Assembly (NCBI GenBank): GCA_030603365.1
Contig: JAUVXV010000004.1
Location: 224,001 to 288,000, forward strand
From: Candidatus Heimdallarchaeota archaeon
GTDB taxonomy: Archaea; Asgardarchaeota; Heimdallarchaeia; Heimdallarchaeales; Heimdallarchaeaceae
Direction of reading: 5' to 3'
DNA length: 64,000 nucleotides
In this document: piece by piece, positions 46,735 through 46,914 of the stretch
Layout: each line of letters begins with the position of its first letter
Position numbering within the stretch: position 1 is the first letter of the stretch
The notes under the pieces: model-generated
Databases searched by the model: none
The model's input: the letters and a program-made list of their open reading frames with translations, nothing else
What the model was told of the DNA's origin: nothing
Position numbers and translations under genes: made by a program

Positions 46735-46914
46735 CCTAGTAAGGATTTCAGGTTCGGAATGGGTCTGAGTGTTACCCCCTCACTATGGCCGCGACGTATC
46801 GCAGCGAATGGCTGTTCCCAAGTGATCTCTCAACTTAGTACAGAGCCACACGTCGAAGGGCTTAACTATCCCGAACATCTGGAATGCCTCCAGATGCTTT
46901 CTGACCTTACTAGG
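46735..46914 (-). other. Pre-5S processing stem with bulge-helix-bulge motif
   Basis: CCTAGTAAGG (46914-46905) / CCTTACTAGG (46744-46735), 4-bp helix TCAG/CTGA, and 3-nt bulges AAA (46900-46898) and AAT (46747-46745). Confidence 0.85.
46746..46867 (-). rRNA. rrf: 5S rRNA, circularly permuted: 3' half (46867-46799), UACG linker (46798-46795), 5' half (46794-46746)
   Basis: The - strand reads AGTTAAGCCCTTCGACGTGTGGCTCTGTACTAAGTTGAGAGATCACTTGGGAACAGCCATTCGCTGCGA-TACG-TCGCGGCCATAGTGAGGGGGTAACACTCAGACCCATTCCGAACCTGAAA. All five 5S helices and the loop C motif CCCATTCCGAAC can be formed. Confidence 0.93.

Follow-up and report, generated by a model that had tools for sequence, protein, structure and literature searches.

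5S rRNA is a universal component of the ribosome, and the locus considered here, in which the two halves of a 5S rRNA follow one another in exchanged order, raises the question of whether it is the working 5S gene of its genome and, if so, what form of RNA it yields. Genes for 5S rRNA are said to be readily located in archaeal genomes (PMC4267664), and in complete Heimdallarchaeum genomes they "could not be predicted" (Wu et al., PMC8813620). The assembly analysed (3.65 Mb, 17 contigs, 89% complete, its 23S gene cut by a contig end) carries the locus on a contig other than that of its 16S and 23S genes. Positions given below are those of the window, i.e., the whole 64,000-nucleotide stretch of DNA that was analysed.

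A circularly permuted 5S rRNA gene

Read on the minus strand, the 3′ half of a 5S rRNA (46867-46799, comprising the 3′ strands of proximal helix III and helix II, helix V, loop E, helix IV and the 3′ strand of helix I) is followed by a UACG loop (46798-46795) that bridges the natural 3′ and 5′ ends of helix I, and then by the 5′ half (46794-46747, comprising the 5′ strands of helices I, II and III, loop C, the distal 3′ strand of helix III and the first A of its AA bulge). This is the order given in the original prediction, three of whose four ends (46867, 46799 and 46794) stand as well, whereas the fourth, 46746, includes one extra A, the canonical junction requiring 46747. Helix I had also been described as closed by a UNCG-type loop, and a loop of this type is indeed found at the helix I ends in nearly all family members, although its closing pair here is A-U and not the extra-stable C-G. 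Helices I-V and loops C and E are all present, and the new break is placed in the AA bulge of helix III, not at the three-way junction.

In native order, the Rfam 5S model RF00001 matches the locus as two halves (22 and 16.9 bits) in swapped order, both below its cut-off of 38, and a search of the whole genome with this model returned nothing beyond these two halves, i.e., a standard finder misses or fragments the gene, as had been anticipated. When scored with an HMM trained on 22 Asgard 5S genes of normal order, the two native halves reach 15.9 and 12.9 bits, and un-permuting the sequence, which had been expected to give a full-length match, lifts the score to 45.4 bits (E 1.3e-11, HMM positions 4-114), while the best of 200 shuffles stays at 6.1 bits. 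Among all rotations of the circle, the one with the top HMM score opens at 46795, within the UACG loop. The structure is equally well preserved: when 26 permuted genes, drawn from five families of the class, are aligned, pairing holds in 95.2% of cells and compensatory changes are seen at 28 of 36 pairs, counts that are inflated by kinship; none of 500 shuffles reaches this level and slid controls, which retain the kinship, pair in 35-48%. All helices covary across the relatives. We have next to no doubt that the locus is a real circularly permuted 5S gene, and these comparisons support a gene form that is conserved and under structural selection.

Upstream of the locus lies a TATA-like box, TTAAAAAA (46937-46944, minus strand), with a purine-rich upstream element, and a TTAAAAA- or TCAAAAA-type box occupies the same place in most family members; archaeal promoter spacing predicts a transcription start near 46915. 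At the other end, a T6 run (46729-46734) directly follows the processing stem described below and is likely an archaeal terminator. A sigma-70 promoter and terminator scan, a model not suited to archaea, gave nothing relevant at this locus, and the divergent tRNA-Ser(GCT) gene (47044-47128, plus strand) is a neighbour only. We propose that the permuted locus is the functional 5S gene of the genome and that it would be transcribed on its own into a precursor some 185 nt long.

Predicted splicing motifs in the flanks

The segments flanking the two halves (46914-46868 and 46746-46735), which lay outside the coordinates first proposed, favour ligation of the splicing type over a linear permuted RNA of the brown-algal kind. 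In other families these flanks form a textbook bulge-helix-bulge (BHB) motif, with a 4-bp central helix that involves the 3′ strand of helix III and two 3-nt bulges, closed by a 7-15-bp outer helix of unrelated sequence. Among 50 diverse permuted loci, 31 form 3 or more of the 4 pairs of the central helix together with 6 or more of the 8 pairs of the outer helix, as opposed to 5.4% of 2296 cross-family pairings, a comparison in which conservation of the central helix is partly constrained by the 5S itself, since its partner is a fixed 5S strand. Six further loci, all of family f3, pass in a third register that would add one base at the junction, and the failing loci are mostly two-site loci (see below) or have an intact central helix and a short outer helix. 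By the established rule, EndA, the tRNA splicing endonuclease, cleaves each of the bulges behind the second base. Cutting and joining in this way restores the exact canonical junction in both of the two main registers, which lie one base apart, and such an outcome is expected if the ends are ligated but not if they are merely trimmed.

In the Heimdallarchaeaceae neither site is a textbook BHB, both being relaxed, and the flanks contain two upstream half-sites, separated by an 8-bp hairpin. In the outer processing helix, a 5′ arm at 46914-46905 pairs with a 3′ arm at 46744-46735 (pair probability 1.0 in the precursor fold), and 9 of its 10 pairs show compensatory change among 22 family loci. 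Half-site 1 (46904-46898) consists of UCAG (46904-46901) and the bulge AAA, with a predicted cut between 46899 and 46898. It is followed by a hairpin insert (46898-46868), whose stem (46896-46889 with 46883-46876) is 97% paired, with compensatory changes in 4 of 8 pairs, and at whose 3′ end half-site 2 (46873-46867) is found, i.e., CGGG (46873-46870) and the bulge AUA (46869-46867). On the downstream side (46747-46735), the bulge AAU (46747-46745) adjoins the 3′ arm of the outer helix. In the unconstrained precursor fold, the UCAG of site 1 pairs with CUGA (46751-46748) at a probability of 0.97-1.0, and its CAG is invariant in all 22 family loci; the helix of site 2 has a pair probability of 0 in the precursor ensemble, its bases pairing with loop C instead. 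Of the cells scored for site 2 and CCUG, 98.9% pair. At site 1, 8 of 22 loci have a mismatch in the outer pair of the central helix, and at step 2 the two pairs adjoining the bulge are often broken, being formed in 14 and 8 of the 22.

We postulate that this precursor matures in two rounds. Its first and last ten bases would pair and thereby present the BHB, and we infer that EndA would cut both bulges and RtcB would join the ends; the genome encodes two EndA paralogues and RtcB, as well as the proteins uL18 and uL5. A first step at site 1 would give a 153-nt ring, across whose new junction a second BHB would form, as CCUG/CGGG then comes to lie between two 3-nt bulges, and removal of 32 nt, probably a nested intron made up of the hairpin insert and A46746, would restore the canonical junction. 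The predicted end product, a ring of 121 nt (46867-46747), would have the canonical junction and AA bulge in helix III and a helix I closed by UACG, and it is this ring that would serve in the large subunit. U46868, a base that differs from the relatives (A in the others), lies inside the part to be removed, and given that U46874 can extend the central helix to 5 bp, this genome may yield a 122-nt product instead of the 121-nt one. Taken as a whole (permuted 5S, BHB cutting and joining in two rounds, ring in the ribosome), we consider this account reasonably probable. As to its parts, it is likely that the precursor is cut and ligated and fairly likely that the ring is the ribosomal form of 5S, and we lean slightly towards two-step processing, in each case judging from the genes.

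The two-site layout is shared by two Atabeyarchaeia genomes, in which the BHB is perfect at both steps and the inserts measure 29-30 nt, and a third member of their family has one site only. The Atabeyarchaeia inserts (L147:426-455 and L151:426-454, minus strand) take the form of a nested intron at the junction and are unrelated in sequence to that of the Heimdallarchaeaceae.

The alternative that fares best would lead to the same 121-nt ring and differs in route only, overlapping with the account above: EndA would use site 2 directly as a relaxed BHB, in a single step, and site 1 and the hairpin would form a discarded leader. The near-constant pairing of site 2 with CCUG agrees with such a route, as does the second permuted copy found in both single-contig family members (L175 and L297), where the outer helix immediately abuts site 2 and the remnant of a hairpin lies upstream, and the two EndA paralogues suggest an enzyme of the relaxed (alpha-beta)2 type. 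Against it, the site-2 helix has a pair probability of 0 in the precursor ensemble while site 1 pairs at a probability of at least 0.97, the CAG of site 1 does not vary, and the Atabeyarchaeia have a perfect BHB at each of the two steps. We therefore see the single step as a possible route with a modest claim, and retain maturation in two rounds as the preferred reading.

By either route, the ring could be an intermediate only, reopened at the helix I loop to give an ordinary linear 5S, an outcome we find unlikely. Permuted tRNAs mature via a reopened circle, according to the account cited in PMC4267664, Pyrococcus 23S is circularised and then re-linearised (as cited in PMC12918454), and helix I loops are variable in other Asgard families. 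In the present family, however, the linker to be reopened is a 4-nt UNCG-type loop, kept throughout and without a spacer to remove, and circular SRP RNA and circular 23S work unopened. Likewise, no RNase P- or tRNase Z-like enzyme is known for helix I of 5S, which counts against reopening of the ring.

More improbable still is a precursor that is cut or trimmed and left unligated, in which case the product would be a linear permuted 5S nicked in the AA bulge of helix III and the insert would be a folding aid. Linear permuted 5S is known in stramenopile mitochondria (PMC4267664), E. coli tolerates a 5S opened in loop C and tethered to 23S (PMC7283268), and the pairing of the 3′ part of the insert with loop C in the precursor fold is what a folding aid might do. 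This reading is opposed by the two registers that yield the exact canonical junction and by the presence of RtcB, by the second BHB of the two-site loci, which exists solely after the first ligation, and by the loop C introns of related 5S genes, which require ligation. A ligated ring remains the form that we favour.

BHB-shaped inserts of 23-32 nt are found inside other archaeal 5S genes as well. Permuted 5S genes from one Hodarchaeales-type and several Lokiarchaeia-type genomes have 30-nt BHB-shaped introns at an identical position in loop C (L058:1647-1676, L303:319-348, L304:422-451 and L164:422-451), and a normal-order Asgard 5S of family f11 has a 32-nt BHB-shaped insert in its GUUAAG segment (L312:357-388). 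Inserts of ca. 30 nt in helix IV or I of three Lokiarchaeia-type permuted genes (L163, L165 and L306) are either introns or expansion segments. Finally, a normal-order 5S (L033:1566-1588, minus strand, on contig L311) has a perfect 23-nt BHB intron in the exact site-2 register; the contig is part of a Heimdall bin, its RpoB'' is nearest to an Aenigmatarchaeota-dominated cluster, and it is probably a contaminant. Between rpoB'' and a 410-aa ORF, the same contig contains a 1441-aa ORF (L311:2026-6351, minus strand) whose start matches the C-terminal half of RpoB and whose size suggests an RpoB'-RpoA' fusion.

Comparison with known permuted and circular RNAs

The precedents named in the original prediction are real (PMC4731332, PMC4267664). 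Thermoproteus tenax and T. uzoniensis have a permuted, circular SRP RNA (Plagens et al. 2015, PMC4731332), and this is the closest known counterpart: both are universal structural RNAs thought to be missing, both have a permuted gene with its own TATA promoter, and in both leader and trailer form a BHB whose cutting and joining restores a conserved element (by EndA there, and as predicted here). The SRP ring has been measured, whereas the Asgard 5S ring is predicted from genes; the latter is, moreover, a ribosomal RNA permuted in most families of a phylum and not in one genus, and comes in more than a single register, with an insert nested at the junction. In the permuted tRNAs of Cyanidioschyzon merolae (cited in PMC4267664) the 3′ half likewise precedes the 5′ half and the two are ligated via a circular intermediate, but these circles are, by the same secondary account, reopened at the acceptor stem, whereas the ends of the Asgard 5S are joined by a 4-nt loop that leaves nothing to remove. 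The mitochondrial 5S of stramenopiles, brown algae among them (Valach et al. 2014, PMC4267664) also has helix I replaced by a hairpin and new ends elsewhere. In brown algae, however, the ends lie at the three-way junction, the RNA is linear and no BHB has been described, in contrast to the helix III AA bulge and splice motif of the Asgard gene.

Circular intermediates of archaeal pre-16S and pre-23S, and circular or permuted 23S, have been reported (PMC12918454, PMC7758197). There too a BHB, EndA and a ligase circularise rRNA, and circular 23S is present in ribosomes, but the genes are in normal order and it is the natural ends that are joined, unlike in the permuted 5S. This route is known for 16S and 23S and not for 5S (PMC12918454), and low-level 5S circles in Sulfolobus were not validated (PMC12918454/PMC7758197). 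In an engineered E. coli cp5S, functional in ribosomes, the native ends are joined by 4 nt (PMC7283268), a connector of the same length as ours, although cp5S, which has its opening within or close to loop C, is an artificial RNA tethered to 23S rRNA, and the Asgard gene is natural. A literature search, with most subscription papers outside its reach, found no report of a permuted, circular or intron-bearing archaeal 5S, in keeping with the original suspicion that the gene form is undescribed.

Sole copy and range within the Asgard archaea

The original prediction had named two things to look for, a conventional copy elsewhere and the same permutation, with covarying helices, in relatives; the first was found neither in this genome nor in five single-contig relatives, and the second is widespread. 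A search of the 89%-complete assembly with the Asgard 5S HMM gave no second locus, the permuted copy being its sole 5S-like sequence, and the five single-contig relatives that carry a permuted gene contain no normal 5S. Two single-contig family members (3,081,793 and 3,326,783 bases) have two permuted copies each and no normal one. With a covariance model built on the alignment of 26 permuted genes, matches were obtained in 79 of 83 class members, a few as contig-end fragments. Almost every genome of the family has the same layout, as do 14 independent metagenome contigs of the JGI collection, and an assembly artefact is therefore ruled out. The joined-junction pattern of this family was found on none of the JGI contigs, which are probably mostly DNA, as opposed to 14 with the fused-end gene form, a result that has little bearing on RNA. 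Conservation, together with the absence of another copy, supports the functional status that the original prediction had assigned to this gene. An artefact (collapsed tandem 5S repeat) or a silent pseudogene with a normal 5S elsewhere, as an incomplete assembly of 17 contigs with a truncated 23S gene might suggest, retains a negligible probability in view of the recurrence of the layout in the class and in metagenomes, its occurrence in single-contig genomes without a normal copy, the compensatory changes and the absence of the joined form from the metagenome collection.

Matches to the permuted model are spread over about 23 of the 30 Asgard families in the sample. Permuted genes can be assigned to Hodarchaeota, Jordarchaeia, Atabeyarchaeia, Baldrarchaeum, Njordarchaeum and several Promethearchaeia. 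Of 151 genomes sampled across the phylum, 81 reach 45 bits or more with the permuted model and 49 exceed the cut-off with a normal-order match; the sole overlap between the two sets is a false half-match, and no genome with both a permuted and a normal 5S of its own was found in this sample. Normal gene order is seen in six families, one of which includes two single-contig genomes that we take to be Promethearchaeum syntrophicum and Lokiarchaeum ossiferum. Two over-cut-off RF00001 matches were rejected as normal copies: that of G033 (38.4 bits) covers one half of a permuted gene together with flanking sequence, and that of G015 belongs to a contig, probably a contaminant, with an RpoB'' nearest to an Aenigmatarchaeota-dominated cluster.

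Beyond this sample, all GTDB species were scanned with a sequence pattern, which yielded 102 matches, 80 of them listed. At least 51 loci among the matches listed were confirmed by the model and are labelled Asgard or "uncultured archaeon", and one confirmed locus labelled Bathyarchaeia matches the class member G082 in match position and score. No bacterial or other non-Asgard match was confirmed among these 80 of 102, with a pattern of limited sensitivity (a close variant caught 22 of 50 known loci) that does not imply absence outside Asgard.

Possible origin and consequences of the permuted gene

In an RpoB tree (a single gene, unrooted and hence giving no direction, from which the Njord-like rows were removed for their long branches) the families with normal order do not group as a single clade (AU p about 4e-51), and thus gene order has switched more than once; four changes are placed on the tree, at least two of them forced by well-supported branches. 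A general picture in which most Asgard lineages, including Heimdallarchaeia, use a closed 5S made from a permuted gene via tRNA splicing, with two ordered steps in this family and repeated switches of gene order, is one that we put forward tentatively, at somewhat less than even confidence.

For permuted SRP RNA, an origin from a gene split by an intron has been proposed by Plagens et al. (PMC4731332). The probable Aenigmatarchaeota normal-order 5S has its intron in the site-2 register, and an origin from an intron at this very position therefore suggests itself for the permuted 5S, whereby rearrangement would have split the gene into 3′ half, exon and 5′ half. In the opposite direction, tandem permuted copies could restore the normal order by recombination. 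Such copies, 157 bases apart, are seen in G077, and G032 has a degenerate second copy downstream (L171 and L150).

The permuted form would explain why 5S remained undetected in the Heimdallarchaeum genomes, and a permuted search model recovers it in 79 of 83 genomes of the class. The grading of MAG quality, which counts 5S genes, is affected as well. If ligation holds true, a ribosomal RNA would depend on tRNA splicing and would work as a ring, which is unreported for 5S in the literature searched. The permuted form is found throughout the sampled class closest to eukaryotes, and gene order is therefore a character of relevance to the origin of eukaryotes, which have the normal order and would either have reverted or have branched outside it.

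Several minor observations concern other genes of the sample and of the window. The rpoB genes L331 and L340 each have one in-frame stop, TAA in G033 and TAG in G090. The window contains a tRNA gene with an anticodon intron (16866-16971, plus strand) that was found by Rfam and missed by ARAGORN, a gene for a GyrB-like protein with a long acidic C-terminal tail (40252-42387, minus strand), and one for an RPA32/Stn1-like protein with an OB fold and a weak match to the RPA C-terminal domain (44529-45185, plus strand). In addition, HypE-like, HypF-like and NuoH-like genes (47900-52528, plus strand) mark the start of a hydrogenase cluster.
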